Of a stretch of 64,000 nucleotides of DNA, positions 6,184 to 25,795 are shown in pieces. A program made the translations under genes and the position numbers. Position 1 is the first letter of the stretch; the number at the start of each line of letters is the position of its first letter. Origin of the DNA: Saprospiraceae bacterium (lineage in GTDB: Bacteria; Bacteroidota; Bacteroidia; Chitinophagales; Saprospiraceae); the NCBI GenBank assembly GCA_020848695.1, contig JADLHT010000061.1, forward strand, positions 35,788 to 99,787, given 5' to 3'. The notes beneath the pieces were generated by a model. The model was given only the letters and a program-made list of their open reading frames with translations. It searched no databases and was not told the origin of the DNA.

Positions 6184-6546
6184 CTAATGAATTTTATACC
6201 CCAATGCAACTAGAAGAATACAAATTGTAACACTTATTCCGATATACGCAATGACTTCAATAATTTTACCTTCTTGTATTAGTATTAAATTTTCACTGGA
6301 AAAACTTGAAAACGTACTCAAACCACCACAAAATCCAGTAATTAAGAAAAGTTTTATCCAATCTGAATTTTGTGAATCGTTTACCTTATTTAGGAAATAA
6401 CCTATAAGTAAGGAGGCTATTCCATTTACAATGATTGTGCTGAGATACACAACTTTATTATTGCTTAAAGTTATAGATAATAAGTATCTGAATACAGAAC
6501 CAAAGCCTCCTCCAACAAATACCCATATCAAAGATTGTAAGTTCAT
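6184..6546 (-). CDS. crcB: Fluoride channel CrcB/FluC
   Basis: It is 120 aa with 4 TM segments. 'GGGFGSVFRY' and 'GFCGGLSTFSSF' are CrcB signatures. Its start overlaps the upstream stop (ATGA). Confidence 0.9.
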   Translation of the reverse strand: MNLQSLIWVFVGGGFGSVFRYLLSITLSNNKVVYLSTIIVNGIASLLIGYFLNKVNDSQNSDWIKLFLITGFCGGLSTFSSFSSENLILIQEGKIIEVIAYIGISVTICILLVALGYKIH

Positions 6547-7595
6547 GGGATATCAATCAGCTTTTTATTTCTTAAATAATGAATCAAGCTTGTTATAAAT
6601 ATTCCTGTTAGAAGGATTATCCACAATAAATTTATATTGCCTAAAAACTGTAATTTATAAGTAATGGCGATAATAAAAGTATTAATTAGGATGAGAATCG
6701 TGGTAACCTGAAGATGTGTAAAACCAAGATCTAAAAGCAGATGATGTAGATGTTGACGATCAGCCTGAAAGGGTGATCGTCCTTTAATAATCCTGATAAA
6801 AAATATACGAATCATATCAAACAAAGGAATAAAAAGTACAGCGATAGCTATAGCAGGTGCCGCATGAATATGATATTCCGGATTCAATACATTTTTGTTG
6901 GATTCAATAAATCCAATGGTCAGTATGCTGCATATTACTCCAACAAGCATTGATCCTGTGTCACCCATAAAAATTCTGGCCGGAGATATGTTAAATTTCA
7001 TAAAAGCTACCAAAGATCCAACCAACGCTGAGGAAATAATTGCATAGACATTCTGATCAATAGACTTAAACCAATAACCTAAGGTAACGCAGATGATTAG
7101 TCCCACGCTGGCGCATAATGCATTTACACCATCAATTAGATTCATGGAATTAATGATTACCAGAATCGTAAACATCGAAATGAGAATACTTACCCACTCA
7201 GGCAATTCAAATAATCCAAAGATTCCGTAGAAACTGGTAATTTGAATATTGGCTTTAAATACCAAAATTGACGCAGCAAATATTTGTCCTACAAATTTCT
7301 TATAAGGATCTAAAGGTATGATATCATCTTTTGCACCAATTAAGAATAGAATAACCATGGCGCAAAGAATATATTGCAAGTCTCCAAAAATCTGAAAAGG
7401 AGTCCAAAGAATTAGACTAAAAATTACTCCGGCAAATATAGCGATACCTCCCAGAGTCGGAATAGATTTAGTATGGGCTCTTCTCTCTTCAGGTTCATCA
7501 ACTAGTTTTTTAACTTTTGCTATGGTAATAATAGACGGTATGGCAATGTAGGTTACCAAAAACGAAGTAATAAAACACAAAATAAGATGATACAT
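6543..7595 (-). CDS. MraY/WecA-family polyprenyl-phosphate N-acetylhexosamine-1-phosphate transferase (glycosyltransferase family 4)
   Basis: It is polytopic. 'GAKDDIIPL', 'NLIDGVNAL' and 'IFMGDTGSMLVG' are the MraY/WecA motifs. Confidence 0.85.
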   Translation of the reverse strand: MYHLILCFITSFLVTYIAIPSIITIAKVKKLVDEPEERRAHTKSIPTLGGIAIFAGVIFSLILWTPFQIFGDLQYILCAMVILFLIGAKDDIIPLDPYKKFVGQIFAASILVFKANIQITSFYGIFGLFELPEWVSILISMFTILVIINSMNLIDGVNALCASVGLIICVTLGYWFKSIDQNVYAIISSALVGSLVAFMKFNISPARIFMGDTGSMLVGVICSILTIGFIESNKNVLNPEYHIHAAPAIAIAVLFIPLFDMIRIFFIRIIKGRSPFQADRQHLHHLLLDLGFTHLQVTTILILINTFIIAITYKLQFLGNINLLWIILLTGIFITSLIHYLRNKKLIDIP

Positions 7596-10556: not shown

Positions 10557-11672
10557 TTATTCTTTGAAAAACGGAATGTTTTTTAACAATTGCTGCGATT
10601 GGAGTTTAATAAAATATAATCCACGCTGTAGCTGATCAATTCTAAGTTGCCCGGATTGTATATTTGCCAGACTAAGAATTCGCCTCCCTTCCAAATTAAT
10701 AATTTCTAAAAGGTCTATTGGTTCATCTCCAAGTTCAATGAAGTCTCTTAAATATAAAATACCAGATTTTTTACTCGCATTTAAATTGTTTAAAGACAAA
10801 ACGGATTCCAGATTTACTCGATATAATCTTCCTCCATTTCGTATCATTGAATTATACTCATCAGTGATAAAAATTGTTTTTGAAGCCATATAGCTAACCC
10901 CTTCTTTTTGACTAAAATGACCTAGAGATATTCTTTTGACAGGTGAAGAGAATAATTTTTCTTTATTTAAAGGATGGAACAACCAAATCTTATCGTGAGT
11001 CAAAAGGCAAAGCTGATCAAAGTCTGGACTGATTGCAGCCCCTGTAATCCAAAAAAATAAGCTTGGTCCTGAACCAGTATAAAAACTATCTATGCGAGAA
11101 GCCGCATAACTTCCTGCTGAATCAGGTATCCGGTATTGGTAAGTATAACCCGAAAAAGGATTCGTTCTGTTTTTTGAAAATAGATAAATATTGTGATTAA
11201 GCCAAATCATAGCTTCCATATCATAATTCTTATTGATGTCCTCAGGAGGAAACTCAGTCTGATCCGAATAATGAAAGTCAATAATTTCTGGACTAACCTC
11301 ATCTGAATTCTTGTAATCGGATTTTTTGATCTTGTATATTCTTTGATCTTTACGATTGTTGCTGTTGTTTCCAAAATCTCCTATATAAAGATTACCCTCG
11401 GAATCAAGTGTAATTTCTTCCCAGTCAATATTAGCAGCATTTTTTATTATAAGAGTGCGTAGTATCTGACAAGTCGTATCGATTTCGTACAATTTAGGTT
11501 GTCCATCACTATCCACTATTGTCCAAAAACTTTGACTTGAATTATCATAGACTAGTCCAGAACTTTCGTGAAGCTTTTCATCCAATTTACACAATTCAGT
11601 AAGGGATACTTGTGCTTTAGTTTCCAGGCTATATATGAACAGGATGAAAAGCAAGAGTTTATTTTTGAACAT
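10557..11672 (-). CDS. Secreted beta-propeller-like protein with T9SS C-terminal sorting domain
   Basis: The signal peptide is 'MFKNKLLLFILFIYSLETKAQ', starting at a verified ATG at 11672. 'ESSGLVYD', 'DWEEITLDSEGNLYIGDFGNNSNNR' and the CTD-like end 'LYFIKLQS...' are present. The longer track ORF starts at a TTG. Confidence 0.6.
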   Translation of the reverse strand: MFKNKLLLFILFIYSLETKAQVSLTELCKLDEKLHESSGLVYDNSSQSFWTIVDSDGQPKLYEIDTTCQILRTLIIKNAANIDWEEITLDSEGNLYIGDFGNNSNNRKDQRIYKIKKSDYKNSDEVSPEIIDFHYSDQTEFPPEDINKNYDMEAMIWLNHNIYLFSKNRTNPFSGYTYQYRIPDSAGSYAASRIDSFYTGSGPSLFFWITGAAISPDFDQLCLLTHDKIWLFHPLNKEKLFSSPVKRISLGHFSQKEGVSYMASKTIFITDEYNSMIRNGGRLYRVNLESVLSLNNLNASKKSGILYLRDFIELGDEPIDLLEIINLEGRRILSLANIQSGQLRIDQLQRGLYFIKLQSQQLLKNIPFFKE

Positions 11673-12285
11673 AAATAATGTATTTCTGCTTAAAAAATTC
11701 TTCTTCAAATTGATCAAAGATTTTCCAGATTTCGTAAGGATTCGATTTTTTTAATTGCAAAAGCTCTTCTCTTAAATCTCCTCCTTTATAGGCAAAAATT
11801 CCGTTTGGTAGTGCGTTTATTTCGTGTTTATCAAAAGAATTTCTTGTCCATTGTATTAGTTCATTAAACTGAGAGACGGCCCTTGAAACTACAAAATGGA
11901 ATTTTTCTTTATGTTCCTCTGCCCTTTTATGATATGCCCTTACATTCTTCAATTCTAATTCATTTATAATTTCATTGACAACCTTAATTTTTTTTCCAAT
12001 TGAATCAATGAGAACAAATTCAACTTTTGGAAAATAAATTGCCAGGGGTATTCCTGGAAATCCTCCTCCACAACCTAGATCCATAACTTTTGTATCCGGC
12101 TTAAAATTAAAAAATCGCGTTAAACTTAAGGAATGAATAATGTGATGAAGGTAAAACTGATCAATGTCTTTTCTTGATATTACGTTAATTTGTGCATTCC
12201 AGAATTCGTATAACGGTTTTAATTCTGTAAAAAGTTTCTTTTGATCGTCTGAAAGTTTGTTAAAGTATTTGAGTACTTGTTCCAT
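11659..12285 (-). CDS. rsmG: 16S rRNA (guanine527-N7)-methyltransferase
   Basis: 'VMDLGCGGGFPGIPLAI' and 'SRAV' are present and the length is typical of RsmG. The ATG at 12285 overlaps the TAA of the upstream gene (TAATG). Confidence 0.9.
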   Translation of the reverse strand: MEQVLKYFNKLSDDQKKLFTELKPLYEFWNAQINVISRKDIDQFYLHHIIHSLSLTRFFNFKPDTKVMDLGCGGGFPGIPLAIYFPKVEFVLIDSIGKKIKVVNEIINELELKNVRAYHKRAEEHKEKFHFVVSRAVSQFNELIQWTRNSFDKHEINALPNGIFAYKGGDLREELLQLKKSNPYEIWKIFDQFEEEFFKQKYIIYVQK

Positions 12286-13379
12286 TACCAATCTCTTTTA
12301 GGAATAAATAAAAATGGGGCTTGAGCAACAAGAAAGAGTAGATATAATAAATGAAAGAAAGGAATATAAAATACATTTATTTTTTCTTTAAGGAGTTTTG
12401 CGTTTCTGATTAAAAAGTAACTACTGATAAACAAATAAGAAATAATACAAAAAATCGGGAAGACAATGCTGTGATGAAACAATAAATAAATACTTAGAGC
12501 AAAAATAGAAAAATAGCTGAAGAAATGCAAGAGTAAGAACATTTGGTCCTTGAATTGGTAATATTGAGCGCTGGAATAGTGTCTTCTTCTTTGTTGAAAA
12601 TATTGACTTAGGGTTGCTTTAGGTTCAGTATATACAAATGAGGACGGATCAATAGAGACAATGGTATTTATCCGGTTACTTTTATTGTTGATTAAAATGT
12701 CATCATCACCTGAAGGATGGGACGGAATGCTTTCCTGAATATTAAATATCCTCTTTTGATATAATAAGTTTCTCCCTACACCCATATAAGGAAATTTACT
12801 ATTTGCCATGCCAAGGTATTGAGAGGTATTCAACAGGGTTTCAAATTGAATAAATTCATGTACCCACGTACCTTTAGTCTTGTAAGGAGAAACACCAAGA
12901 ACAATTTCTGTAGAAGGATTGATGTTCTCTACCATTTTTTGAATCCAATATTGTGATGACGGTGAACAATCCGCATCAGTCAACAGAACCCAGTCGTATT
13001 TTGCCCGCTGAATTCCTTCATGTAAGGCCAATTTTTTTCCTAATGAGCTTTTATTGTGTTCGATATACACGAATCGACTATTACTATCTTGCTGAAACTC
13101 CAATATAAGCTCAGCCAGCCCTTTTATAGGTCCATCGTTTACGATTATAATTTCAAAATCCGAATAAATTTGATCTGCAATCCTTTTGAAGTTCACTTGC
13201 AAGGCATTTGACCATTCATGAACAACAATGATGATCGAGATCGGTAAACTTTGATTTTTAATAGTTTCTTCCGAATCAGATGCTCTTAGTTTCGAGTAAA
13301 TAAATCCCCAAAAGAGACATTGGATTAAAGTACATATGAGTAGGTTGACCTGTAAGATAAAAGTTAACAAATTTTCCAA
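12285..13379 (-). CDS. Membrane-bound glycosyltransferase family 2 protein
   Basis: It has a GT-A core 'ISIIIVVHEW...', 'IIIVNDGP' and 'LLTDADC' (DxD). There is an N-terminal TM segment and several C-terminal TM segments. The start codon is a TTG at 13379. Confidence 0.7.
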   Translation of the reverse strand: MENLLTFILQVNLLICTLIQCLFWGFIYSKLRASDSEETIKNQSLPISIIIVVHEWSNALQVNFKRIADQIYSDFEIIIVNDGPIKGLAELILEFQQDSNSRFVYIEHNKSSLGKKLALHEGIQRAKYDWVLLTDADCSPSSQYWIQKMVENINPSTEIVLGVSPYKTKGTWVHEFIQFETLLNTSQYLGMANSKFPYMGVGRNLLYQKRIFNIQESIPSHPSGDDDILINNKSNRINTIVSIDPSSFVYTEPKATLSQYFQQRRRHYSSAQYYQFKDQMFLLLHFFSYFSIFALSIYLLFHHSIVFPIFCIISYLFISSYFLIRNAKLLKEKINVFYIPFFHLLYLLFLVAQAPFLFIPKRDW

Positions 13380-13425: not shown

Positions 13426-13433
13426 TATGTTTG
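13426..13433 (+). promoter_or_regulatory. Bacteroidota -7 promoter motif TATGTTTG upstream of the PorU-like gene
   Basis: It matches TAnnTTTG, 22 nt upstream of the ATG at 13456. Confidence 0.35.
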
Positions 13434-13455: not shown

Positions 13456-16400
13456 ATGAAATACTACTCAATAATAGCACTTTTGCTTATCCTCAGCAAT
13501 ACCTCATTAAGTGCTCAAATGTACTTTAATGGTCAGCAATTGTATGGCAATGAATGGATAAAAACCAATCAAAGCTATTATAAGTTTTACATCACTGAAG
13601 ATGGATTCTACCGAATTGACTATCAGGATCTTGTGAATGCAGGGATTCCGCTTCAGAACATTTTAACCAGGAGCATCAGGCTTTTTAAAAATGGTTCAGA
13701 AATTGCCCTCAGAACTAGCTCTAACTCTACGATGAACCCAGGTGATTTTATTGAATTTTATGCTACGCACAACAGAGGAGAATTAGATCAGGCATTATTT
13801 AAGCCAAACACAGCTTTATTTAACAAAGAGTTTAGCATGTTTGACGATAAGTCTGCCTATTATCTAACCTGGGATAATACATCAGACGGATTGCGAATGA
13901 CTGAAAAGAACAATGATACTTCAAATCCAATCCGCAAAGAGGATAGTTATATAAAAAAAAGCATTTATTTCTACAGTGAGTATGCCACCAAAAGAGCATA
14001 TGGTTATCAAGGTTCCTTAAAGTTGCCCGACTTTGATGAAGGTCAGGGATTTGGAACAGGTCCCTCTAATGATAGAACATTCTCTCTTTCCTTTAAAAAT
14101 ATTTATAAACAAGGAAATGATGCCGAAATTAAAGTTACTTACTTTTCAATTGGTGCTGAAGATCGCACGGTACATAAAGTCAATTTTTTCATTGATAATG
14201 AAGTAAAAGCCAATTCACAATTTAATGGATTTAAAGTTAACGAACAAGTTTTAAATATATCTGCAGAGAGCTTGAACGAGAACCATTCACTTCGCGTGCA
14301 ATCTTTCGCAAGCGGTGATGATAAATTTAGCTTATCCACTATTGAGCTACGATACGAGTCCATGTATGAGTTTAATAATGAAACTTACGCACAATTGACT
14401 GTTTTGCCATCTTTAACCAGGAAGACCATCGTTATAGAAAAATTTAATGGAGGCGCTGATCTCTGGTTGTATGATCTTACCAATAATTATTATCTTAAAT
14501 CTCAAAAAAATTCAGACGATACTTATATGGTTGATTTACCGCCTTCGGACTTTGAGAGGGAAATTATCATACTTAATCCTTCAGTTTCATATAAGAATAT
14601 ATCAAAGATTGAAGAAGTAAAGATGGTAGAGTTTGAAAAGGGAGATTATAATTATCTTATGGTAACTTCAAAAAGATTGGTTGATCCTAACAATGACGCC
14701 ATATCAGAATATAAATCGTACAGAGAAAGTAAGGAAGGTGGAGCCTACAAAGTTAAACTTGTCTATATCGAAGATCTGGAAGAGCAGTTTGCTTACGGGA
14801 TCAGAGCACACAACATAACACTTAGAAATTTTTTCCAATTCACAAGGACAATCTGGCCAAATATGCATTACGTAGTGATAATCGGCAAGGGGCTCGAATA
14901 TCAGGTATATAGAAACAGTTCCATGAGATTTAATGAATATGATTTTGTTCATACTTATAGTGAGCCGGCTTCAGATTATATGTTGGTATGTGACAATAAT
15001 AGAGTTCCATTTTACACTCTTGGGAGAATTCCAATCGTACATAATGCAGAATTAAGAGACTATCTCAATAAGGTAAAAGAACATGAGAATGTTATCAGCG
15101 GAACACAACATGAAATTGCTAACCGTGAATGGTTAAAAAAGGTAATTCATCTATCTGGGGGTGATCCAAAGCTATATAGCACCTTGAGATCACAACTAAA
15201 AGGAATGGAAGATGAAATTGAAAACAATAAATTTGGAGCTGAAGTAGAAACATTTTATAAAGAAAGTACAAGCTCAACAGAAGTTATAACTTCTGAAAAA
15301 CTCCAGAATCTGATCAATACAGGAGTTTCTATTATTTCATTTCTAGGACACTCCATCTCTTATAAATTGGATTTTAGTCTGGAAAGTGTAAATGATTACA
15401 AGAACAAAGGAAAATATCACGCCTTTGTCGCTTTGGGATGTTATGCGGGACAGATGTTCTTAAACAATAAGAGTATAAGCGAAACGCAAAACTTAACTGC
15501 AGAGAAAGGTTCGGTACTATACATTTCCAATACTAATGCCGGACTTCCGGGATTATTGTATGAGTTTGGTACAAATTTCTATTCGCAACTAGGAGGTGAT
15601 TATTACAATGAACCTGTTGGCGATGCAGTAAGGGCAGTTTTTAGTAATCTTATATCAAGAAATCAGGAAAGCCTGATATCTCAGGCCTTGTCAATTAGCT
15701 TTAATGGAGATCCTGCTTTAAGATTAAACAACAATAAAGAGATAGATATTACACCCGATGGAAATACAGCAAAGCATCTTGACAAATATGTTTTTGCAGA
15801 TCAAAAACAGTTCAAGTTTAGTGTCGATTTAGTCAACTTGGGTAAGGCTTATTCAGATAGTGTAAAAATAAAATTAGAGAATGTATATCCTAATGGAACC
15901 CGTTTAGAAGTGTTTAATGGAAATGTTGTGCTTCCGGTTAACCGAACTAATTTTCAGTTTACTGTTCCTCTAGACGAAAACAGATCTACAGGTTCCAATA
16001 CCTTATTGCTTACTGTGGACCCGGACAACAAATTGATTGAAGGGCCACAACCCATAGCCGAAAACAACAATTCCTTAATAACCGGAAATAATCAGACGGG
16101 ATTTAGTTATATTGTAATCGGTAACAATGCAAGAATTTTGTATCCAACAGAGTTTGCAATTATTAATGAATCTAAACCTAAACTAGTAGCTTATAATGGG
16201 TTTTTATTTGGCAGGTCAAAGTATTTTATGGAATTGGATACTACAGAACATTTTAACAGCCCTTTGAAAAGATCAACAGAATTTAATCAGTTGGGCGGTG
16301 TTATCTCCTGGAGTCTAACAGAAGAATTAATTCCAGACCTTGTGTATTATTGGAGAGTAAGACCTGATAGCACAGGTTCTAATATACTTGCATGGAAGAA

Positions 16401-18465
16401 TAGTTCATTTGTATATATTCCGGGAAATGAAATTGGATGGAATCAATCCCATTTCTTCCAATATACTAAAGATAAGTTTAATCAATTAGCTATTAAAGAA
16501 GACCAAAGATATTTTGAATTTGGAAATTCAATACTTGAGTGTAGGCTATTCAATGGATATATCACACCGAGAAGCACTAATTATTTCAGACCCAAAATTG
16601 TATTGGGTTCAGATGTAAAAGCACAATATGATTATTGGGATTACCCTTCAGATGTTTCCGGTGTAGTTGTAGCATTTGTTGATCCGGTTTCTGGAAATCT
16701 GGTTAAAAATATAACGGGCTCAGATAAGAACAGTCGGGGCGGATCAAGAATGGCTAATCAGCCTTACTTTCTATTTTCAACTGAAAACAAAGAAGAAAGA
16801 GCTAAGCTTCTTGGCTTTTTAAAGTCAGAAATTCCTGATCAGAGCGTTGTGTTTTTTCAAACGTTGGTGCAAGAACCTTATTCTCTTAATTTGGCAGAAT
16901 GGAAATCAGATGGAACTGAAAACCTAATTGATTTCTTGAAATCAAAAGGAGCAGGGAGTATTGATCAATTGGTTGCACAAGGGAATCTTCCATATAATTT
17001 AATTTATGGTCAAAACAGGCAGGGCTATGAGACAAGAGATAGAATTGGAGATACTCTGATTGAATTGAACTTAGCTCATTCTCTAACTGTCAAATTAGAT
17101 AGAGGAAGTCTTGAATCAGCTCATATTGGACCCGCAAGCTCATATAACAAAATGCTTTGGAATTATGATTTATTTGATCCAAATACAGATACAATAAGTG
17201 TTGATATACTGGGTATTGATGTGACGGGCAAAGAAGAATTAATATTGGGATCACAAAAGGCCAGTTCTATTGACTTGCAATTTGTTGATGCCAAGAAGTA
17301 CCCATATTTAAAATTGAGATGGAACTCAAAAGATCAATTCAAAAAATCATCGGCAAATCTTGACTATTGGAGAATCTATTATACTTCCGGACCAGATATT
17401 GCTTTTAATCCTGCACTATATTACAAAAAAAACGCAGACACTGTACAACAGGGAAAAATGTTCAGCGTGGACATTACAGCACAAAACATCAGTACCTATG
17501 ACATGGATAGTCTTTTGGTTAAATTCACATTAATTGATGTAAAAAACAAGCGCGTTGAATTTGAAAATCGATATATACCCGTAAAAGCATTTCAAGAATT
17601 GACTTTCAATTATCAGAAAAGAACTCTCTTGCAATTGGGTGCATATAAACTAATTGTAGAGTTGAATCCTAATCAGGATCAATCAGAGTTTAATACTTTT
17701 AATAATACTGCAATCATAGATTACTATGTACTAAGAGATATCAAGAAACCTTATGTCAGAGTTTCATTTGATGGCGTAAGCATTCGAAATGGTGATATTG
17801 TTTCACCTTCCAGCAGAATAGTAGTATTGTTACAGGATGAAGACAATAGTATTCCGATGGATAATCCGGATCGCTTCAAAATTAAGTTAGAATATCCAGA
17901 TGGAAACTTAATAAGTTTGGATCCTTCAATTCAGTCAAATGTTCGATTTATTCCTGCTGATACCGGGACCTCAAAAAATGAAGCAAGCATGATTATTGAT
18001 GGAGGATTAATTCAGGATGGTGACTACAAATTATTTGTCAGAGGAAGTGATGGTAATGGAAATTTTACTTCGGAAACTGATGAGGTCATTGAATTTAAAG
18101 TCGTTAAGGAGAGCAGCATATCCAATGTATTCAATTATCCTAATCCATTTAGTAGCAAAACAAGATTTGTATATACGTTAACTGGATCGAAGTTGCCCGA
18201 ATTTTATAAAATACAGATCATGACCTTATCAGGGAAAGTTGTTCGCGAGTTGGATGAATCTGAATTGGGTATTTTGAAAATCGGTACGCATTTGACCGAA
18301 ATGGAATATGATGGAACTGATGAGTTTGGAGACAAACTGGCGAATGGTGTTTATTTGTACAAAGCTTTATTTAAAGATTCAGAAGGGAATAGTATTAAAA
18401 AGTTTGAAAATGGAACTGATTCCTTTTTTAAGAATAATTTAGGCAAAATGGTAATTGCCAGATAA
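13456..18465 (+). CDS. Peptidase C25 family, T9SS sortase PorU-like protein (very long 'PorU2'-type paralogue)
   Basis: It has a signal peptide and the C25 N-terminal pattern 'YYKFYITEDGFYRIDYQDLVNAGIP'. The putative dyad is His 'IISFLGHSISY' and Cys 'AFVALGCYAGQMF', and the domain ends with 'SFNGDPALRLN'. The C-terminal Ig/CTD-like region is 'NVFNYPNPFSSKTRFVY...GVYLYKALF'. Confidence 0.75.
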   Translation: MKYYSIIALLLILSNTSLSAQMYFNGQQLYGNEWIKTNQSYYKFYITEDGFYRIDYQDLVNAGIPLQNILTRSIRLFKNGSEIALRTSSNSTMNPGDFIEFYATHNRGELDQALFKPNTALFNKEFSMFDDKSAYYLTWDNTSDGLRMTEKNNDTSNPIRKEDSYIKKSIYFYSEYATKRAYGYQGSLKLPDFDEGQGFGTGPSNDRTFSLSFKNIYKQGNDAEIKVTYFSIGAEDRTVHKVNFFIDNEVKANSQFNGFKVNEQVLNISAESLNENHSLRVQSFASGDDKFSLSTIELRYESMYEFNNETYAQLTVLPSLTRKTIVIEKFNGGADLWLYDLTNNYYLKSQKNSDDTYMVDLPPSDFEREIIILNPSVSYKNISKIEEVKMVEFEKGDYNYLMVTSKRLVDPNNDAISEYKSYRESKEGGAYKVKLVYIEDLEEQFAYGIRAHNITLRNFFQFTRTIWPNMHYVVIIGKGLEYQVYRNSSMRFNEYDFVHTYSEPASDYMLVCDNNRVPFYTLGRIPIVHNAELRDYLNKVKEHENVISGTQHEIANREWLKKVIHLSGGDPKLYSTLRSQLKGMEDEIENNKFGAEVETFYKESTSSTEVITSEKLQNLINTGVSIISFLGHSISYKLDFSLESVNDYKNKGKYHAFVALGCYAGQMFLNNKSISETQNLTAEKGSVLYISNTNAGLPGLLYEFGTNFYSQLGGDYYNEPVGDAVRAVFSNLISRNQESLISQALSISFNGDPALRLNNNKEIDITPDGNTAKHLDKYVFADQKQFKFSVDLVNLGKAYSDSVKIKLENVYPNGTRLEVFNGNVVLPVNRTNFQFTVPLDENRSTGSNTLLLTVDPDNKLIEGPQPIAENNNSLITGNNQTGFSYIVIGNNARILYPTEFAIINESKPKLVAYNGFLFGRSKYFMELDTTEHFNSPLKRSTEFNQLGGVISWSLTEELIPDLVYYWRVRPDSTGSNILAWKNSSFVYIPGNEIGWNQSHFFQYTKDKFNQLAIKEDQRYFEFGNSILECRLFNGYITPRSTNYFRPKIVLGSDVKAQYDYWDYPSDVSGVVVAFVDPVSGNLVKNITGSDKNSRGGSRMANQPYFLFSTENKEERAKLLGFLKSEIPDQSVVFFQTLVQEPYSLNLAEWKSDGTENLIDFLKSKGAGSIDQLVAQGNLPYNLIYGQNRQGYETRDRIGDTLIELNLAHSLTVKLDRGSLESAHIGPASSYNKMLWNYDLFDPNTDTISVDILGIDVTGKEELILGSQKASSIDLQFVDAKKYPYLKLRWNSKDQFKKSSANLDYWRIYYTSGPDIAFNPALYYKKNADTVQQGKMFSVDITAQNISTYDMDSLLVKFTLIDVKNKRVEFENRYIPVKAFQELTFNYQKRTLLQLGAYKLIVELNPNQDQSEFNTFNNTAIIDYYVLRDIKKPYVRVSFDGVSIRNGDIVSPSSRIVVLLQDEDNSIPMDNPDRFKIKLEYPDGNLISLDPSIQSNVRFIPADTGTSKNEASMIIDGGLIQDGDYKLFVRGSDGNGNFTSETDEVIEFKVVKESSISNVFNYPNPFSSKTRFVYTLTGSKLPEFYKIQIMTLSGKVVRELDESELGILKIGTHLTEMEYDGTDEFGDKLANGVYLYKALFKDSEGNSIKKFENGTDSFFKNNLGKMVIAR

Positions 18466-18473
18466 AGATATTT

Positions 18474-19526
18474 CTAAAGTATTTTTTTTATTTCGTAACA
18501 GGCATCCAGATAAAATTTATGGGTCCAATTCACATACTGGTATGGAAAATAATTTCCGGATTTTGGATGACTGGCATATAATGCGCCATTGTGATCTTTA
18601 TTTGTACTTTTTATCTGCCAGGACATCAATTCTTTTATCAATTTGATTGCAATTTCTTTGTAAATTGAATTTTGGCTTATCTGATAGGCTTTACAAAAAA
18701 GAGAAATAAATTGAGCTTGTCCTGTTGTGCAGCAATAGTTTGATTGGTTCCTAAATTGATTATCATATTCAGCACCGAGCAGTTTCGTTTGTTGGATTTG
18801 TTCTGCAAATTGATCCAATGTCTTTATAGTTAATTCGATTAATGAACTATTGTTCAATAATCGGCCGGATTCTAAAAAGCCTTCCAGTCCATAGGCAATA
18901 GTATGAGTTAATGCATGAGGTGTATTGTAAAAGCTAAAAGAAGACAATCCATTCTTCTGATAAGCCTCGGCCAAGAATTGAAGAGACTGATTTATTCTGT
19001 CAAGATTGTCTAACTTACATTTTATCATGGGCCATAATGCCCTTGAGTAGTAAGATTGATACAAATTTTCAGTATAAAGTCCTTTGTAACAAATTCCATT
19101 GTGATCTAATGCATTCAGAAGCCAATCATAAGCAAGATTTAATGAATTTAAATAAATTGCATTTTTACTATATTCATATGCCTCAACCAAGCCAAAAAGA
19201 ATCTGACCTGTATTAAAGAAGGAAGGAGTTTTTAAAGAAATTCCTGAATTATAGCTTCCATCTTCATTTTGAATTTTTACTAACCATTCAGAAAGTTTAA
19301 TTCCTATCTCTATTGACTGAGGATGTGACCCAGAGTTGGTTCTCAATAGATTTTCAATAAGAAAACCAGTCGTTTCAGGATAAGCCTTTCTCCAGGCAAT
19401 TATTCCCGGAAGATAATTTCTACGGCTGTGAGATATTCCTTTTTCCTGAGTTACTTCAAAAGCCCTTTGCAGCCAACATATAGTTAAATGCTCAGATCTA
19501 TTAATATCCCGAATCAGATCTGACAT
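18474..19526 (-). CDS. Uncharacterised alpha/alpha-toroid-like protein (prenyltransferase / terpene-cyclase / AGE-like repeats)
   Basis: It has repeated helical hairpin motifs 'YPETTGFLIENLL', 'NEDGSYNSG', 'FNTGQILFGLVEAY' and 'CTTGQAQFISLFCKAY', and no signal peptide. Its function is not identifiable by eye. Confidence 0.4.
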   Translation of the reverse strand: MSDLIRDINRSEHLTICWLQRAFEVTQEKGISHSRRNYLPGIIAWRKAYPETTGFLIENLLRTNSGSHPQSIEIGIKLSEWLVKIQNEDGSYNSGISLKTPSFFNTGQILFGLVEAYEYSKNAIYLNSLNLAYDWLLNALDHNGICYKGLYTENLYQSYYSRALWPMIKCKLDNLDRINQSLQFLAEAYQKNGLSSFSFYNTPHALTHTIAYGLEGFLESGRLLNNSSLIELTIKTLDQFAEQIQQTKLLGAEYDNQFRNQSNYCCTTGQAQFISLFCKAYQISQNSIYKEIAIKLIKELMSWQIKSTNKDHNGALYASHPKSGNYFPYQYVNWTHKFYLDACYEIKKIL

Positions 19527-20414
19527 TTATCTTAATTTCTGAATATTCCGCAATATTGGGTTCGGAATATAATATGTGTTAGGATAAATTATTGTCCGGC
19601 TTCCAAAAGTTTTAAAAATTTTTGCAATTTCCAATTTGGAGGAACCGTCAAAATTGAAGTGGCAATTCTTAGTTAAAGCCCATTGAATACCTTCCCATAT
19701 TAATGAAAGATGACTACCTCTCATAGTCTTCTCTCGATTGTTATAATTAAAGCTGTAGTAAATACAATCTTTTGAATGAATAAAAACTGAGATTGAATGA
19801 ATAGTGTCATGAGACCTGCAAACAAATGCTTTTAAAATTCCTAGTTGAATTGAATTATCAATAAATTGTGAGAATTTTATTCTATTTAAATTGGATGCCG
19901 AGTAAGCTGAATTTTTAAATATTTCCTCTATAATTGTTTCAACGTTAGTACACTCTACTACTTCTGAATTTTGACGGGCATAGACTATATCATTGCGTGC
20001 TTCGCTTCTTAATTTTTCCCAAATTGAATTTATATCTTTGGATTTTTCAATCAACTCAGTAAATGCAAGTTGAAAAACCAATCGTTTACATGAAACTCGA
20101 GCCATATCCAAGGTATCAATTTTAAACTTTAATTGAGCAACATCCCATTTTTTTAGTTGGGTACAAAGTAATTGAATGAGATGCAATTCTGTATTGAATT
20201 TTGTGGATTTGTTAATATCTGAGTTGTGATGAATAATGACCGAATTAAATGGTGAAAATGGAATGGAATAAGCAATGTTGAGAAAGTACTTTCTCATTGG
20301 AAAGAGAACAACATGAAGATGAGATTCTTTATACTTTATCAAGATTTCTTCATGAGAGTTGCAAAAGCAATCAAGCCAGTTATCTGATAAAAAAAGTTCT
20401 TTAGTAATACTCAT
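19527..20414 (-). CDS. FemAB/GNAT-like acyl- or aminoacyl-transferase (PF13480-like)
   Basis: 'INSIWEKLRSEARNDIVYARQNSEVVE' and 'GSHLSLIWEGIQWALTKNCHFNFDGSS...IAKIFKTFGS' follow the FemAB-type GNAT pattern. Its stop abuts the start of 18474..19526. Confidence 0.55.
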   Translation of the reverse strand: MSITKELFLSDNWLDCFCNSHEEILIKYKESHLHVVLFPMRKYFLNIAYSIPFSPFNSVIIHHNSDINKSTKFNTELHLIQLLCTQLKKWDVAQLKFKIDTLDMARVSCKRLVFQLAFTELIEKSKDINSIWEKLRSEARNDIVYARQNSEVVECTNVETIIEEIFKNSAYSASNLNRIKFSQFIDNSIQLGILKAFVCRSHDTIHSISVFIHSKDCIYYSFNYNNREKTMRGSHLSLIWEGIQWALTKNCHFNFDGSSKLEIAKIFKTFGSRTIIYPNTYYIPNPILRNIQKLR

Positions 20415-20468
20415 TGTAATGACGTATGCAAAAATAAAAATAGATTAATATTTTTTACTATTTATTCA

Positions 20469-20476
20469 TAGTTTTG
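20469..20476 (+). promoter_or_regulatory. Bacteroidota -7 promoter motif TAGTTTTG upstream of the flippase operon
   Basis: It matches TAnnTTTG, 18 nt upstream of the ATG at 20494, in the 79-bp divergent intergenic region. Confidence 0.4.
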
Positions 20477-20493
20477 CAATTGCTGCTTTATTA

Positions 20494-21921
20494 ATGACGG
20501 ATCTACATCAGAAATTCAATTCAATTTTTCGCTGGCAATTCTTCTCAATAAGTGTTATATCTGTAATTCAACTGATTACCATAATACTACTGGGTAGATT
20601 GCTGGAGTATAAAGAACTGGGTTCGTTTGCGCTTTTTCAGATTGTATTTCGTTTTGCATTATATTGTCTGGATCCTGGGATGTTCTTCAGTGTTGTTCAG
20701 AAACATGAGAGTAACTTAAAATTAGTCCAAAAGCTCTTTGTACTACAATTAGTGTATGTTATTATTTCCTATTTAGTTTTAGGTTTACTCTCTATATTTT
20801 CCGATTCCTTTAAAGAATTGTATGGTTCATTATTAATCAATTGTTTTTTAATCATTATTATTATAGGTATTGGTTCGTATTTTCAGTCCAAGCTGGTTCA
20901 AAAATTCAGACAGAGAGAAATTGCCATTTTTCAAACTTTGGGGTATCTGGCTGAACTCTTGTTTGTTATTGTTTTTTGTACTAAGTTTAATCCGGTATTG
21001 GTATTTAGTTATGGGATAATTTTAAGATTTTTGATATTCTATATGTTATGCTTCATTCTTGTTTGGAATAAAAGCAATTGTATGGAAACTCAGGAATTAT
21101 TAAACAATACTTCAAGAGATCATCTTGAGCAAAATCATTACAACATTGCATCCCAGATTCTTAGTTTCTTTCAAGGACAGTACGATACATTTATCATTAT
21201 TAGCCTATTTGGAATGTCAACACTTGGAGGCTATATATTAACAACTGAAATAAGTTATGTAATATTTTCAAAATTAAATCCAATTTTCACAAAAGCGATT
21301 ATTCCTACTGTTTCAAAATCCATGGATGACTTACTAATGGCTTCTAAACTGATTGAAAACAGTATGAATAATTTTTTATTGATAAGTGGCTTGTTATATG
21401 GTTTTTTCTGGATATTTCGATTAGAATTATTTAGTTTTCTATTTAAAGACAAATCGACTGATCTAAGTTATTACGCCATATTTCTGTTTATTGTAGCTTT
21501 TAGCAAATCGGTAAACAATATAATTAATTCCTATTTTTTAGCCTTAGGATTTGCTAAAAGAATATTTCATTGGAATATTTTACTTTTAATTTTTAATTAT
21601 TTAATATTCGGAATCTTTTACTTTTTTAAATTAGATCTTGATATTTTTTTAAAGTTCAGCGTGATTTATTCATTGACTATAACAGGCATAGTATATATAT
21701 TATTGAGAAAGGTCATATTATTCTGTAATATACCCGAAATCAAGATTCAAATCAGACCATTAATAATCTTTCTAACCTGTATTATAATCATGTCAGGCCT
21801 ACACAACTTTGTATTAAATACAATGATTTCACTTTGCTTATCGATTATTTCTGTACTTTTAATTCTATACAATTTTGAAAGGGATAGATTGAATTCCTGG
21901 CTTAAATTAAAAGTAATTTAA
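20494..21921 (+). CDS. Wzx-type oligosaccharide/polysaccharide flippase (MOP superfamily)
   Basis: It is 475 aa with about 12-14 hydrophobic segments. It sits at the head of a glycosyltransferase operon, and its stop overlaps the next start (TAATG). Confidence 0.7.
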   Translation: MTDLHQKFNSIFRWQFFSISVISVIQLITIILLGRLLEYKELGSFALFQIVFRFALYCLDPGMFFSVVQKHESNLKLVQKLFVLQLVYVIISYLVLGLLSIFSDSFKELYGSLLINCFLIIIIIGIGSYFQSKLVQKFRQREIAIFQTLGYLAELLFVIVFCTKFNPVLVFSYGIILRFLIFYMLCFILVWNKSNCMETQELLNNTSRDHLEQNHYNIASQILSFFQGQYDTFIIISLFGMSTLGGYILTTEISYVIFSKLNPIFTKAIIPTVSKSMDDLLMASKLIENSMNNFLLISGLLYGFFWIFRLELFSFLFKDKSTDLSYYAIFLFIVAFSKSVNNIINSYFLALGFAKRIFHWNILLLIFNYLIFGIFYFFKLDLDIFLKFSVIYSLTITGIVYILLRKVILFCNIPEIKIQIRPLIIFLTCIIIMSGLHNFVLNTMISLCLSIISVLLILYNFERDRLNSWLKLKVI

Positions 21922-23537
21922 TGTCATCATTCGTTATTACAAATTTACTATTTAATCCAGGCACTAATGTGGCTAGTGACGAAAAGCCCTATAAAATATT
22001 AGATTATACTGTTCTTGTTAAGCAAACTAATTTGTTTAATCAACTATTAAAGGTAAATGATAACTTCATTTGTCATATTCTTGGCAACCCTGTTTTAAAA
22101 AGAACTTTTTCTTTGGTATGGAGTGAATGCAATTTACAAGAATTATGGAACGACGACAAGAGTATTTATAAATTCTTTAAGAATTGGAATGGAATTACTG
22201 CTCTTTTAATGGTAAATAAAGATCTCAATCAAATAAGAATTATTACAGATCCCTTAGGGTTTTTTCCGATTTTCATTTATGAGGATCCAAACGGATTAAT
22301 CATTACCAATGAACTGAAGCAGTTTTGGAATTATAATATTCAACCGTTGGAGTGGGATTTCGAATCCATACAAGCATATTACAATAATGGCCATTTTATT
22401 TCTGGGAGAACTTGGTTTAAAAATTGTTTAAGAGTCTTGCCCGCCCAAAGAGTTACGATTAATGCAGACGAGGTTAAAATCAATAAAGAATTTTATTGGA
22501 CCTGGAGTCAATCTATTCCTAATAAATTAAACTATGAAGATACAGTTGAGGAATATTATAATACATTTAGCAAGACATTTGAAGAAATAGATTTGAACAA
22601 CAAACATGTTGGAGTCGGGCTTAGCGGTGGAATGGATAGTCGTTGGGTAGCGTATGAACTTAGTAAAACCAAAGCACAGGTAAAAGCCTTTACCCTTTCA
22701 GAAGGAAATTCTATAGACTTGAATATTGCAAGAAAAGTTTCTTCAATTTTAAAAATGGAACATTTCAAAATTCCTATCCAAATAACAGGTTGGTACCGAA
22801 AGAGATTGAAGCAATTTTGGGAAATAGATGGCTTAATACCATTACAACATTTTCATGAAGGTCCCATTTATGAGCAGTTGACTCAAAAATTTGACCTAAT
22901 TTCAACTGGTTTTTACGGAGGTGGAATTTATGCCACAGGTAGCTATCTTAATCAAAGGATAAATAGTTTTCTTGCGAATCAATATTTGTCATTGAAGAAA
23001 ATTTCAGCCTGTTCAGACTTAGATTATTTTAATATTGATTCTATTGATCCTTATCTTTCATGGCAAAAAATTTCTCAGTGTGGAGCATTACAGGTATATA
23101 CCATGTCAAAGTATATTAATGTCCTTATCCCTTTTTATAATATTGATTGGATGGTATTTAATTATTCCATACGAGAACAATGGCAGGAATACAGTAAATT
23201 TTATCTTAAAGTACTAAGCCGATACCTTCCCGAAAAATTAGCAAGAAGCATATGGCAAAAAACCTTGATACCGGCATCATGGATTAATTCGAACTATTGG
23301 ATTCAGAGATTAAAGTTTAATAAAATTTTGAAGAAATTATTTGAATGGTGTGGTTTAAAAACAAGCTTTGTAAATTACAATTGTATTCATAAGGATTTTC
23401 AGGATATCCTTGAAATTCTGGAGATTCCAGATTTTTTAAAGGCCTGGAGACCTGAAACAACAGAACAAAAATTGCGATACTCTTCAATTATTATTTGGTA
23501 TCACATGTGGACTAAAAGAAGACCTGATGTCCTATAA
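21921..23537 (+). CDS. Asparagine-synthase-like PP-loop ATP pyrophosphatase (amidotransferase family) lacking the N-terminal Cys nucleophile
   Basis: The PP-loop is 'VGVGLSGGMDSRWVAYEL'. The N-terminus is 'MSSFVI', not 'MCG'. Confidence 0.65.
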   Translation: MSSFVITNLLFNPGTNVASDEKPYKILDYTVLVKQTNLFNQLLKVNDNFICHILGNPVLKRTFSLVWSECNLQELWNDDKSIYKFFKNWNGITALLMVNKDLNQIRIITDPLGFFPIFIYEDPNGLIITNELKQFWNYNIQPLEWDFESIQAYYNNGHFISGRTWFKNCLRVLPAQRVTINADEVKINKEFYWTWSQSIPNKLNYEDTVEEYYNTFSKTFEEIDLNNKHVGVGLSGGMDSRWVAYELSKTKAQVKAFTLSEGNSIDLNIARKVSSILKMEHFKIPIQITGWYRKRLKQFWEIDGLIPLQHFHEGPIYEQLTQKFDLISTGFYGGGIYATGSYLNQRINSFLANQYLSLKKISACSDLDYFNIDSIDPYLSWQKISQCGALQVYTMSKYINVLIPFYNIDWMVFNYSIREQWQEYSKFYLKVLSRYLPEKLARSIWQKTLIPASWINSNYWIQRLKFNKILKKLFEWCGLKTSFVNYNCIHKDFQDILEILEIPDFLKAWRPETTEQKLRYSSIIIWYHMWTKRRPDVL

Positions 23538-24657
23538 AGTATTACATGTGGTAGATCATTATCTACAGGAGACCATGAACTGGCTTCAGGAATTGTTCTT
23601 AGCAACTGAGTCTGAGGTTAATCATACTATTGCAGCCATTTACAGAAGCAGTGACGAGAATAGATATAAAATTCTGGAAGGATTCGGTCTGCAGATAACT
23701 TATCCTCCCAATCATTTTAATCGAATTTGCTCTTTCCTAACTCAAGGTATAGATGAAATGAAAATGATTGAATACTCAAAGAACGAGAATATAGATGCTG
23801 TACATTTTCATTTTGGCAATGTTGCCCTTCGATTTGAAAAAATACTTAATAAATTGAATTGTAAGAAATTTATTTCTCTTTATGGTTTTGATTATGAATT
23901 GTTGATTAGAAAAAATCCCGAAACATTAAACATCTATAGAAAATTGGCTAAGGGAGGTGCAAATTTTATAGTTGAAGGAAGGTATAGCAAAAAACTGGTT
24001 GAGTCCTACGGAATTCCAACTTCCCAAATTTATATTGTAGAAATGTTTTTTCAACGAGCTTTAAAACCTGCATATATTCCCTGGATCATTCCTATTAGAC
24101 TTATGCAGGCGGCTACTTACACAGAAAAAAAAGGACAACTTATCCTACTAGAAGCCTTGTCACGATTAAGAGAATCTCAAATGTTCATTGTTGATTTATA
24201 TGGCGAAGTGGTAGATCCAAATTATTACAAAGAATTGAAGCATATTTTAAAGATTAACAAACTGAATTCTGTAAACTTGAATCCAAAGATTACTTTAAAT
24301 TTATATATTGAAAAACTGAAAAATTCTCATGTAGTAGCCAGTTTGAGTAAGCATACTGAAAAAGGCGATTCAGAAGGTGGATGTCCGGTAATAATCAAAG
24401 ATTCTTTCTCAGTAGGCAAACCTGTGTTGACAACTGATCACTGTGATATTCCTGACATTGCAATTCACCAGTATAATGCATGGCTGGTTAAAGAGAATTG
24501 TATTCATCAAGCTAAAGAAGCTTTACAACAGCTTACGAGAATTTCAGAAAGAAAGTATCTGCATTTTTGTAAATCAGCATGGGAGACCGCTATTGAAAAA
24601 TTGCAATCAGAATGGACCCGATCTTGTTTATTGCAAGCGTATCAAAATGGAAAATAG
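23527..24657 (+). CDS. Glycosyltransferase family 4 (GT-B, group 1)
   Basis: The C-terminal GT-B motif is 'EGGCPVIIKDSFSVGKPVLTTDHCDIPDI'. It overlaps the upstream gene by 11 nt. Confidence 0.7.
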   Translation: MSYKVLHVVDHYLQETMNWLQELFLATESEVNHTIAAIYRSSDENRYKILEGFGLQITYPPNHFNRICSFLTQGIDEMKMIEYSKNENIDAVHFHFGNVALRFEKILNKLNCKKFISLYGFDYELLIRKNPETLNIYRKLAKGGANFIVEGRYSKKLVESYGIPTSQIYIVEMFFQRALKPAYIPWIIPIRLMQAATYTEKKGQLILLEALSRLRESQMFIVDLYGEVVDPNYYKELKHILKINKLNSVNLNPKITLNLYIEKLKNSHVVASLSKHTEKGDSEGGCPVIIKDSFSVGKPVLTTDHCDIPDIAIHQYNAWLVKENCIHQAKEALQQLTRISERKYLHFCKSAWETAIEKLQSEWTRSCLLQAYQNGK

Positions 24658-25795
24658 AAGAATTGTTCTCTTCACACCTTATTATCCGCCTTTGATTAAT
24701 CCAAGAAGTATCAGAGTAAAAAATTTAATATCAGAACTGATTAATTTGGAAGAATTTCTTCTGATTACTAATCCAATGAGATTAGAACGCGAAAATTCTG
24801 ATTGGATAAGAGAACATGGTATTGATTTGTCTCCACAGTTTGGAAACACAACACAAAAAAGTTTTGCGAGAAGATTATTAGGACAGCTGATTTGGCCAGA
24901 TTTATTTGTTCTAAATAGCCTCTATCAATTATTTAAATATATCATTAAGTATAGAAAGAAACAAGACATTCTGATAACAGTATCCAATCCTGTTTCATGC
25001 CATTTAATTGGATTATTTTGCAAAGCAATTTATAATCAATTCTGGATAGCTGATATTGGAGATTTGTTTGATTCAAAAAAAACAAATCGGTCATTTATTG
25101 CAAAGTACTATGAGAATATTGTTCTTCAAAAAGCCGATAGAATAATTGTGAACTCCAAGAGTATTTATGAATATTATCAGTCTGAATATAAGATTAATAC
25201 AAATAAATTGTCGATAATTTATAATGGCTCAATGATAAATTTTGAAGGACTTCAATCCAGATTGATTAAACCCTACAAGATTAGTTATTTTGGGAATTCT
25301 TATTTACCCATAAGACCCGGAATAGCAGAGCTTCTCATCTTACAAGAAGCAATTTCGAAATTAGAAGAATCTGGTTTTTACTTTGAAGTAAAACTTATCG
25401 GTCGGCAAAATGAAAATTTGATTAATAGTATTGATTGCGATAGAATTCAATTATTAGAATTTGTTGACTCCAGTAAGTTAGAAATTCAATATAGCAATAC
25501 TAGTATATTGTTTAGCTTGGCAAATATAAATTATAAAGGATTGCCGAGTAAGCTTGAAGAATATTGTTTGAGCGGATTGCCTATAATTTATTTCTATTCT
25601 TCTTTGGATGATCCCGGTTTAGAGTATCTAGAAGGATATCATCCTCTATTTCTGTTTCACCTTGACCGCAGTAAAGTTGATGAGCTAATTGAGTTTATAC
25701 TGAAATACCATGAAGCAGGAATAAAACATATAACAAAAAACCTTAAACCCAATTCTACATCCTGGAGAAAACTTTTAGAAGAACTTAACAAATAA
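24647..25795 (+). CDS. Glycosyltransferase, GT-B/GT4-like
   Basis: It begins 'MENRRIVLFTPYYPP', a typical GT4 start, and contains 'GLPSKLEEYCLSGLPIIYF'. The ATG at 24647 was verified. The track ORF from 24443 would overlap the previous gene by 215 nt. Confidence 0.6.
   Translation: MENRRIVLFTPYYPPLINPRSIRVKNLISELINLEEFLLITNPMRLERENSDWIREHGIDLSPQFGNTTQKSFARRLLGQLIWPDLFVLNSLYQLFKYIIKYRKKQDILITVSNPVSCHLIGLFCKAIYNQFWIADIGDLFDSKKTNRSFIAKYYENIVLQKADRIIVNSKSIYEYYQSEYKINTNKLSIIYNGSMINFEGLQSRLIKPYKISYFGNSYLPIRPGIAELLILQEAISKLEESGFYFEVKLIGRQNENLINSIDCDRIQLLEFVDSSKLEIQYSNTSILFSLANINYKGLPSKLEEYCLSGLPIIYFYSSLDDPGLEYLEGYHPLFLFHLDRSKVDELIEFILKYHEAGIKHITKNLKPNSTSWRKLLEELNK

Follow-up and report, generated by a model that had tools for sequence, protein, structure and literature searches.

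Genes of the PorU2 locus

In the 64-kb stretch of Saprospiraceae DNA analysed here (in the following, the window), which stems from a metagenome-assembled genome, the gene for a long C25 cysteine peptidase of the PorU2 family, which is related to the sortase PorU of the secretion system of type IX (T9SS), adjoins a set of genes for the assembly of a glycan. This adjacency, which is found in the Saprospiraceae, suggests, without proving it, that the sugar is a protein anchor. The anatomy of the locus is solid, and the functional link between peptidase and glycan is one that we infer by analogy. An earlier note on this DNA had proposed a sortase with its own anchor glycan, based on seven open reading frames (ORFs), all of which were recovered with identical coordinates in an ORF map of the window:

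13456..18465, + strand: PorU2-family C25 cysteine peptidase, putative second T9SS sortase (1669 aa)
18474..19526, - strand: (alpha/alpha)6-barrel ("toroid") protein, sugar epimerase-/hydrolase-like, cytoplasmic (350 aa)
19527..20414, - strand: FemAB-like GNAT (Acetyltransf_6) family protein, putative N-acyl/aminoacyl transferase on an amino sugar (295 aa)
20494..21921, + strand: Wzx/MOP-family flippase, gene 1 of a divergent four-gene operon (475 aa)
21921..23537, + strand: AsnB-like PP-loop (adenylating) enzyme, putative ammonia-/amine-dependent amidoligase for a sugar carboxylate (538 aa)
23527..24657, + strand: GT4-family (GT-B) glycosyltransferase a, GT4a (376 aa)
24647..25795, + strand: GT4-family glycosyltransferase b, GT4b (382 aa from ATG; the mechanical ORF list begins earlier, with a GTG at 24443)

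The junctions were read directly. The PorU2 stop codon (TAA, 18463-18465) and the reverse-strand stop codon of the toroid gene (18474-18476) leave a convergent gap of 8 bp, and the FemAB-like gene abuts the toroid gene with no intergenic bases. The divergent wzx-asnB-GT4-GT4 operon is translationally coupled: stop and start are joined in a TAATG (21919-21923) at the wzx/asnB-like junction, the asnB-like gene and GT4a overlap at 23527-23537 (ATG at 23527, stop at 23535-23537), GT4a and GT4b at 24647-24657 (ATG at 24647, stop at 24655-24657), and from these positions each of the two overlaps measures 11 nt. Gap, TAATG and overlaps had thus been described exactly in the earlier note, and the enzyme classes it had named (C25, alpha/alpha toroid, FemAB/GNAT-like, Wzx, AsnB-like PP-loop and two GT4) were borne out by hidden Markov model (HMM) searches and by AlphaFold2 and Foldseek. 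Since contigs with PorU2 proteins of 64%, 55% and 44% identity repeat this gene order, the block consists of real conserved genes and not of chance ORFs. The Bacteroidota -7 box TAnnTTTG stands at 13426-13433, 20429-20436 (minus strand) and 20469-20476, 15-23 nt before the starts of the PorU2, FemAB-like and wzx genes; because the motif is not enriched across the window (87 found, 93 expected), these boxes are compatible with three transcription units and are not evidence for them.

By its sequence, the long C25 protein is a member of the PorU2 family, paralogous to the T9SS sortase PorU, and its His/Cys dyad is intact. It had been called PorU-like, which was correct in this particular form: the protein passes the NCBIfam model NF052324 (putative T9SS sortase PorU2) with 615.9 bits over residues 16-863 (cut-off 450) and fails the canonical PorU model NF033707 (138.6 bits, cut-off 420). 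PorU2 and PorV2 (NF052325) are curated NCBIfam names, and the sortase role of PorU2 is termed 'putative' in that name. The C25 domain (full-length PF01364, E 2e-47) spans residues 400-757, and the dyad, His632/Cys662, is invariant in an alignment of 34 homologues. An N-terminal signal peptide, MKYYSIIALLLILSNTSLSAQ, can be read from the translation; the C-terminus is Ig-like and ends in a tail resembling a T9SS C-terminal domain (CTD), NYPNPF...KMVIAR, which gives a weak match to the CTD model TIGR04183 (E 1.8e-3) and whose motif NYPNPF...R is nearly invariant across the family in the 34-sequence alignment. The best PDB match of the family profile is PorU of P. gingivalis (6za2, E 1e-13), ahead of the gingipains. 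The N-terminal 860 aa fit the PorU-related model end to end, and the C-terminal ~800 aa are an extension without counterpart in PorU. An NCBI entry which is 100% identical to the 1669-aa protein, IT267_12050, is annotated as 'MAG: hypothetical protein'.

For the toroid protein, the (alpha/alpha)6-barrel fold was confirmed in an AlphaFold2 model (pLDDT 95.6, pTM 0.94), a fold which does not define the reaction: Foldseek matched the model to cellobiose, glucose and GlcNAc 2-epimerases (AGE-type) as well as to GH88 unsaturated glucuronyl hydrolases, with TM scores of 0.66-0.73 at 10-14% identity. Residues H208, E219, C266, K337 and D341 are invariant. A role of the toroid as periplasmic partner of PorU2 was considered and rejected because none of the toroid N-termini examined bears a signal peptide.

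The neighbouring 295-aa ORF has no Pfam or NCBIfam match of its own, PF13480 remaining below threshold, and a homologue search returned the query alone. A family of 11 was therefore assembled from neighbours of the toroid gene in other loci; PF13480 is matched by nine of the 11 aligned members, PF02388 FemAB by two, and TIGR03019 pepcterm_femAB by one (E 5e-6), the window copy being without a match to the latter. PF13480 is also present in the orthologue of L082 (loci used for comparison carry our L numbers). Searched against the PDB, the family profile gave a marginal match to an aminoacyl-tRNA-dependent peptide synthase (E 0.019). Judged by these sequence relations, the 295-aa ORF is a member of the FemAB-like GNAT family.

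In the operon, Wzx matches PF13440 (1.4e-13) and PF01943 (6.4e-10) and reaches 77.7 bits, under the cut-off, with the MOP flippase model NF007773. The AsnB-like protein shows weak PF00733 and PF13537 matches together with TIGR01536 (2.4e-17), and its PP-loop, SGGMDS, is retained. Its short form (538 aa), ~100 aa shorter than canonical AsnB or WbpS, was seen only in the window and in L081-L083, and other toroid loci carry canonical homologues of 615-660 aa. GT4a matches PF00534 (2.7e-11), PF13692 and, weakly, PF13439; GT4b matches PF13439 only (1.6e-7). Of the cassette's glycosyltransferases, GT4b is conserved most widely: it has strong homologues beside PorU2 or toroid in L001, L019, L065, L084 and L093, and 27 of the 83 loci centred on the toroid (L084-L166) contain weaker ones. 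Nothing informative came from searching the PDB with the sequences of GT4a, GT4b and the AsnB-like protein. Neither a Wzy_C nor a Wzz domain was found in the block or in the window ORFs that were scanned for domains (those of at least 90 aa). Of the matches expected in the earlier note, PF01364, PF13440/PF01943, GT4 and a weak PF00733 were obtained, PF13480 was not reached by the window copy and PorV2 was not found in the window.

PorU2 and its neighbours across Bacteroidota

A profile built from the 34-sequence PorU2 alignment was scanned against one genome per species and yielded 80 further loci, with PorU2 proteins of 27-34% identity, where a single-sequence query had returned none. ORFs were called in the flanks of these loci, clustered and searched with HMMs, and a match to a cassette protein was termed strong at 300 bits or more. 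In 54 of the 80 loci (L012, L018, L020-L080), a PorV2 gene, identified by NF052325 (487.9 bits, for example L012:8868-9965), lies directly upstream of PorU2 on the same strand, the two genes overlapping or standing apart by a median gap of ~18 nt. Outside the Saprospiraceae, such a PorV2 gene precedes PorU2 nearly always, and the PorV2-PorU2 operon has the look of an ancestral or default arrangement. Farther upstream and on the opposite strand, 29 of these loci contain a tyrosyl-tRNA synthetase-like gene, which was read from sequence and not confirmed by family search. In L028, a strong GT4b homologue (L028:4881-6146, 429 bits) is situated 3.8 kb upstream of PorV2, either an intermediate context or a coincidence.

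A second group of PorU2 genes, those without PorV2 within 10 kb, forms a single Saprospiraceae clade in a neighbour-joining tree, and the window belongs to it; PorV2 was found within 10 kb in none of the clade's loci (the window, L081-L083 and the genome-scan loci). Of the 19 clade loci with usable flanks, 12 have strong toroid, FemAB-like, Wzx or GT4b matches at no more than 10 kb from PorU2, compared to a single one (L028) of the 54 loci of the PorV2 group (Fisher p = 3e-8, uncorrected for phylogeny). The remaining clade loci contain other glycan genes (Wzm/Wzt, GT2s) or none. Synteny of the block with PorU-like genes, as envisaged in the earlier note, hence exists within the Saprospiraceae down to 44% PorU2 identity, and does not extend across Bacteroidota, where 54 of 80 loci have the PorV2-PorU2 operon.

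The closest relatives (L081-L083, with PorU2 64%, 55% and 44% identical) keep the order GT2-rsmG-CTD protein, PorU2, toroid, X, Wzx-AsnB-GT4-GT4; in L083, the most distant of them, both outer flanks differ yet the block stays, X being a formyltransferase. No gene accompanies PorU2 more persistently in Saprospiraceae than the toroid gene, which occurs near it in 14 loci, in changing positions: it is convergent with PorU2 in the window and in L081-L083, divergent head-to-head in L004, L008, L089 and L115, separated by one or two genes in L001, L010, L065, L091 and L093, and 5 kb away in L019. Altogether, at least six gene orders occur among the linked loci, whose PorU2 proteins are 30-46% identical in pairwise comparison. 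In L002, PorU2 is embedded in a polysaccharide cluster, with FemAB, FkbM methyltransferase, GT2 and Wzx genes on one side and PMT_2, Wzy_C, UDP-GlcNAc 2-epimerase and DegT aminotransferase genes on the other.

Polytopic membrane proteins are encoded beside PorU2 or toroid at L093:10872-12350 and L084:11061-12344 (both PMT_2), L002:14997-16283 and L010:7351-9063 (DUF6056), the one of L002 being assigned by 39-40% identity to PMT_2 proteins alone. If of GT-C type, they would be candidate periplasmic glycan ligases; none was seen in the window clade.

The association was also found independently from the toroid side. Scanning a toroid alignment against JGI metagenomes gave more than 555 relatives, and among 80 loci examined, PorU2 adjoins the toroid gene in four (L089, L091, L093, L115). 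In the toroid tree, a single clade of 16 members holds all PorU2-linked toroids, which make up 12 of the 16.

The rest of the window

Upstream of PorU2, the minus strand carries genes for a GT2, rsmG, a protein with a weak CTD, metG, a methyltransferase-like protein, a WecA/MraY-type transferase, crcB and an AdoHcy hydrolase. Four of these deserve a closer description:

12285..13379, - strand: GT2-family glycosyltransferase, possible further member of the glycan set (PF00535 1.2e-22)
10557..11717, - strand: secreted protein with weak T9SS sorting domain, candidate cargo (PF18962 6.7e-4, PF06977)
8307-10448, - strand: metG
6543..7595, - strand: WecA/MraY-family polyprenyl-phosphate sugar-1-phosphate transferase, candidate initiating transferase (PF00953 1.4e-37)

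The GT2 gene is divergent from PorU2 across a 76-bp spacer and, with rsmG, is kept upstream of PorU2 in L081-L083, L007 and L010. The CTD protein at 10557-11717 stays with the block in the closest clade only, with homologues in L081-L083. The WecA/MraY-type gene is kept in L081 and L082, not in L083, and its membership in the system is uncertain. Between 6543 and 10448, metG, a gene for a spermidine-synthase-like methyltransferase and the WecA/MraY gene run in the same direction, with 7 and 32 bp between them, an arrangement which recalls the linkage of metG with glycosylation genes in the LFG loci of Bacteroides.

Downstream of the block follow genes for a methionine aminotransferase, a TonB-dependent-receptor-like barrel, a GLPGLI protein and a DUF2279 protein. 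The aminotransferase (25835-27016), the sole one of the window, is of the class I methionine aminotransferase type (NF006569, 466.9 bits). The remainder of the window is housekeeping, plus one further CTD cargo gene and a SusC/D pair. The product of this cargo gene (33212-35833, minus strand), 15 kb downstream of PorU2, measures 873 aa and ends in a clear T9SS CTD (PF18962, 7e-9); it has a homologue at L083:2-1432, ~8.5 kb upstream of PorU2 in otherwise different flanks, and might be a cargo travelling with the locus. In an 815-aa ORF at 57017-59464, the middle domain of a Mur ligase is fused to an entire alanine racemase (PF08245, PF01168, PF00842), which gives a cell-wall precursor enzyme unrelated to the PorU2 locus. 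Besides PorU2, CTD-bearing cargo was the only T9SS component found in the window, and PorV-, PorV2-, PorQ- and PorZ-type genes were not found in it; the self-contained character supposed for the locus gains no support from this.

A candidate acceptor glycan, its alternatives and its counterparts

As an explanation, we propose that the cassette would assemble a short glycan unit on undecaprenyl phosphate, no polymerase being encoded at the locus. The toroid enzyme would set the configuration of a sugar, the FemAB-like enzyme would N-acylate or aminoacylate an amino sugar and the AsnB-like enzyme would amidate a sugar carboxylate of this unit, which Wzx would flip to the periplasm and which would then be joined to a surface glycolipid or polysaccharide. 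In analogy to PorU and the linker of anionic lipopolysaccharide (A-LPS) in P. gingivalis, the Saprospiraceae PorU2 would cut the CTD from a subset of the T9SS cargo proteins and transfer the new C-terminus to an amine on the glycan, and the gene linkage would reflect the shared function of an enzyme and its acceptor substrate. That PorU2 uses the product of the adjoining cassette is quite possible, and we hold this reading tentatively, on the grounds of gene neighbourhood and of the analogy. The broader proposition appears rather unlikely to us in its entirety, namely that the Saprospiraceae PorU2 lineage gave up the PorV2 operon and became coupled to a cassette of its own for an acceptor glycan, which diversifies, whose amine nucleophile the FemAB-like enzyme supplies and to which a dedicated cargo subset is attached, as a second, compact branch of T9SS attachment.

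A considerable number of observations weigh against PorU2 using the glycan, some of them taken up below with the comparison to P. gingivalis, and many would equally be accounted for by an ordinary surface-polysaccharide locus of the O-antigen or exopolysaccharide (EPS) type, which came to lie passively beside PorU2 in a single inherited juxtaposition and whose glycan has nothing to do with PorU2 catalysis. Because the Saprospiraceae PorU2 clade is monophyletic, the linkage may stem from one ancestral juxtaposition, and one event suffices; among the 54 PorV2-PorU2 loci, a single one has a strong cassette match, and the module is absent from seven of the 19 clade loci. The housekeeping gene rsmG is likewise retained beside PorU2, in six loci. 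Sister loci contain pyruvyl transferase, FkbM methyltransferase, Wzy_C and Wzm/Wzt genes (the latter in place of Wzx), which are typical of generic surface polysaccharides. In L083 (16408-17349) and L087 (639-1610), a formyltransferase (Formyl_trans_N, PF00551) replaces the FemAB-like gene beside the toroid; this exchange looks like glycan diversification in the style of O-antigens, and is awkward for an acceptor with a free amine since N-formylation would leave none. Moreover, toroid genes are widely found with GT4b-like, Wzx, canonical-length AsnB and GT2 genes in ordinary-looking polysaccharide clusters without PorU2 (for example, L086), as is the case for most other toroid loci, and L084, which is collinear with L093 (neighbour proteins 55-78% identical), has the module and no PorU2 in its 15.6 kb. 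The location of orthologues in ordinary O-antigen or capsule loci, which the earlier note had seen as fatal to its proposal, thus applies to the distant toroid relatives and not to the orthologous clade of the toroid tree. Passive adjacency nevertheless has to explain why the proximity has outlasted at least six rearrangements among PorU2 proteins of 30-46% identity, why the block was kept in L083 where both outer flanks have been replaced, why toroid accompanies PorU2 in more loci than rsmG does (14 compared to six), and why PorU2 of L002 stands within a glycan cluster. We therefore consider it possible, though somewhat doubtful.

The presence of metG 3 kb from PorU2, followed by co-directional methyltransferase-like and WecA-like genes, leads to another explanation, that the locus resembles the LFG loci and makes the species-specific outer glycan of the general protein O-glycosylation of Bacteroidota, with which PorU2 and cargo would be glycosylated like many other periplasmic and surface proteins, there being no relation of sortase and acceptor. 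LFG loci comprise metG, a wzx flippase, variable genes and several, terminal glycosyltransferases, without a polymerase, and give a non-polymerised oligosaccharide (PMC12871550, PMC8698959); in the window, Wzx and glycosyltransferases occur without Wzy or Wzz and metG is in the vicinity, as it is upstream of PorU2 in L067. The defining layout, however, fails at the order of metG and wzx, which are neither co-directional nor adjacent (metG on the minus and wzx on the plus strand, ~10 kb apart with four genes between), and at the end of the operon, which is formed by two GT4 (GT-B) enzymes and not by the GT2-type fucosyltransferase closing LFG loci (PMC8698959), and an LFG identity prompted by metG was rejected as such. 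Neither L083 nor the more remote of the linked loci have metG nearby, genes of the FemAB-like, AsnB-like and toroid kinds do not figure in the LFG description, and according to the review cited, the LFG organisation is not conserved beyond Bacteroides and related genera. This explanation is improbable. Still less probable is that PorU2 acts as a secreted or surface C25 protease of the gingipain kind, or as a processing enzyme for glycan-associated proteins, with its proximity to glycan genes being a matter of co-regulated surface remodelling. The C25 fold is common to gingipains, the ~800-aa C-terminal extension is absent from PorU, and the NCBIfam name leaves the sortase role 'putative'; against this, the N-terminal 860 aa fit the PorU-related model throughout, PorU and not a gingipain is the closest PDB structure, and in 54 loci PorU2 stands in an operon with a barrel of the PorV/PorQ family, the partner of the PorU sortase.

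Regarding novelty, PorU2 is mentioned in no article of the literature searched, a point which does not favour the sortase-acceptor reading, and none combines PorU with Saprospiraceae. A lineage-specific exchange of the PorV2 context for a glycan cassette therefore appears undescribed; what appears new is this link of PorU2 and glycan cassette in one lineage, the PorU2 name and the T9SS sortase with glycan anchor as a category being known. How T9SS cargo is fixed to the cell surface is essentially known only from P. gingivalis, T. forsythia and Prevotella intermedia. A functional linkage would give PorU2 its first testable function, in the form of the acceptor hypothesis, and the peptidase and ~6-7 glycan genes would be a compact set that can be transferred or removed as a whole for the study of glycan-anchored surface display. 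If the linkage is only an inherited adjacency, what is left is a correctly annotated polysaccharide locus beside a named, uncharacterised peptidase.

Among known systems, the closest in logic is that of P. gingivalis, with PorU, PorV, PorQ and PorZ and the A-LPS linker. There, PorU joins cargo by an amide bond to a sugar of the Wbp/Vim pathway, at its seryl or glycyl amine; the synthesis of this sugar needs the FemAB-like VimA, matching TIGR03019, and the AsnB-like WbpS (PMC7468200). A single pentasaccharide that is not polymerised serves as the anchor, and an initiator and three glycosyltransferases build it on undecaprenyl pyrophosphate before it is flipped (PMC13086638). What the earlier note had said of P. 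gingivalis is correct. As in the window, the C25 enzyme combines a His/Cys dyad with a signal peptide and a CTD-like tail that is retained, and the linker pathway has enzyme classes in common with the cassette: VimA (FemAB-like GNAT), WbpS (AsnB-like), VimF (GT4) and PorS (Wzx), where the agreement of the GT4 and Wzx proteins with VimF and PorS is at the class level only (GT4 and MOP flippase Pfam matches). With Wzx, two to three glycosyltransferases, FemAB-like and AsnB-like enzymes and no polymerase, the cassette holds what a linker of the P. gingivalis type would need, and its genes are clustered with the peptidase whereas those of P. gingivalis are scattered. The module can thus be called Wbp/Vim-like in its enzyme classes, not in its members, so that the analogy is good in logic and weak in membership. 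No cassette enzyme is a demonstrable orthologue of WbpS, VimA, VimF or PorS, and the cut-offs of the WbpS and VimA models are not reached. The AsnB-like protein gains 45 bits with the WbpS-type, glutamine-hydrolysing model TIGR03108 (cut-off 816.9) and begins with MSSFVIT, and hence lacks the glutaminase nucleophile Cys2; from its sequence, we infer an adenylating amidoligase using ammonia or an amine. The WbpA/B/E/D core (UDP-GlcNAc dehydrogenase, oxidase, DegT aminotransferase and acetyltransferase) was not found in the 64-kb window and could be elsewhere in the genome, a CE4/polysaccharide-deacetylase (VimE) domain was not found in the window ORFs scanned, and the (alpha/alpha)6 enzyme has no Wbp/Vim counterpart. 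The peptidase itself is a PorU2 of 1669 aa with its additional C-terminal half instead of a PorU, and without a PorV-, PorQ- or PorZ-type gene nearby.

The PorV2-PorU2 operons of Chitinophagaceae, Flavobacteriales and other Bacteroidota share with the window the PorU2 family, its length and its domain order, with full-length alignments at 27-34% identity; they have PorV2 immediately upstream and no glycan genes nearby, whereas in the window glycan genes flank PorU2 and PorV2 is not found in 64 kb. From a Wzy-dependent O-antigen or EPS cluster, the window differs in that Wzx was found and neither Wzy nor Wzz among the ORFs scanned, although the sister locus L002 has Wzy_C.

Finally, the EPS loci of the PEP-CTERM/exosortase system (XrtA/EpsH) likewise unite a sorting transpeptidase with FemAB-like, AsnB-like, glycosyltransferase and polysaccharide export genes. 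Veith et al. (2020) pointed out the FemAB and AsnB genes beside exosortase genes and speculated on an amino-acid-modified sugar as acceptor (PMC7468200). The sortases of the two systems are unrelated, a membrane exosortase as opposed to a secreted C25 peptidase, the sorting signal is another one, and the window proteins are far under the cut-offs of the models for PEP-CTERM loci, TIGR03019 pepcterm_femAB and TIGR03108 eps_aminotran_1. If the linkage described here is functional, the pattern of a sortase beside FemAB and AsnB genes would recur in a second, unrelated sortase family, which would argue for a general rule that protein-sorting transpeptidases travel with the makers of their amine-bearing sugar acceptor.

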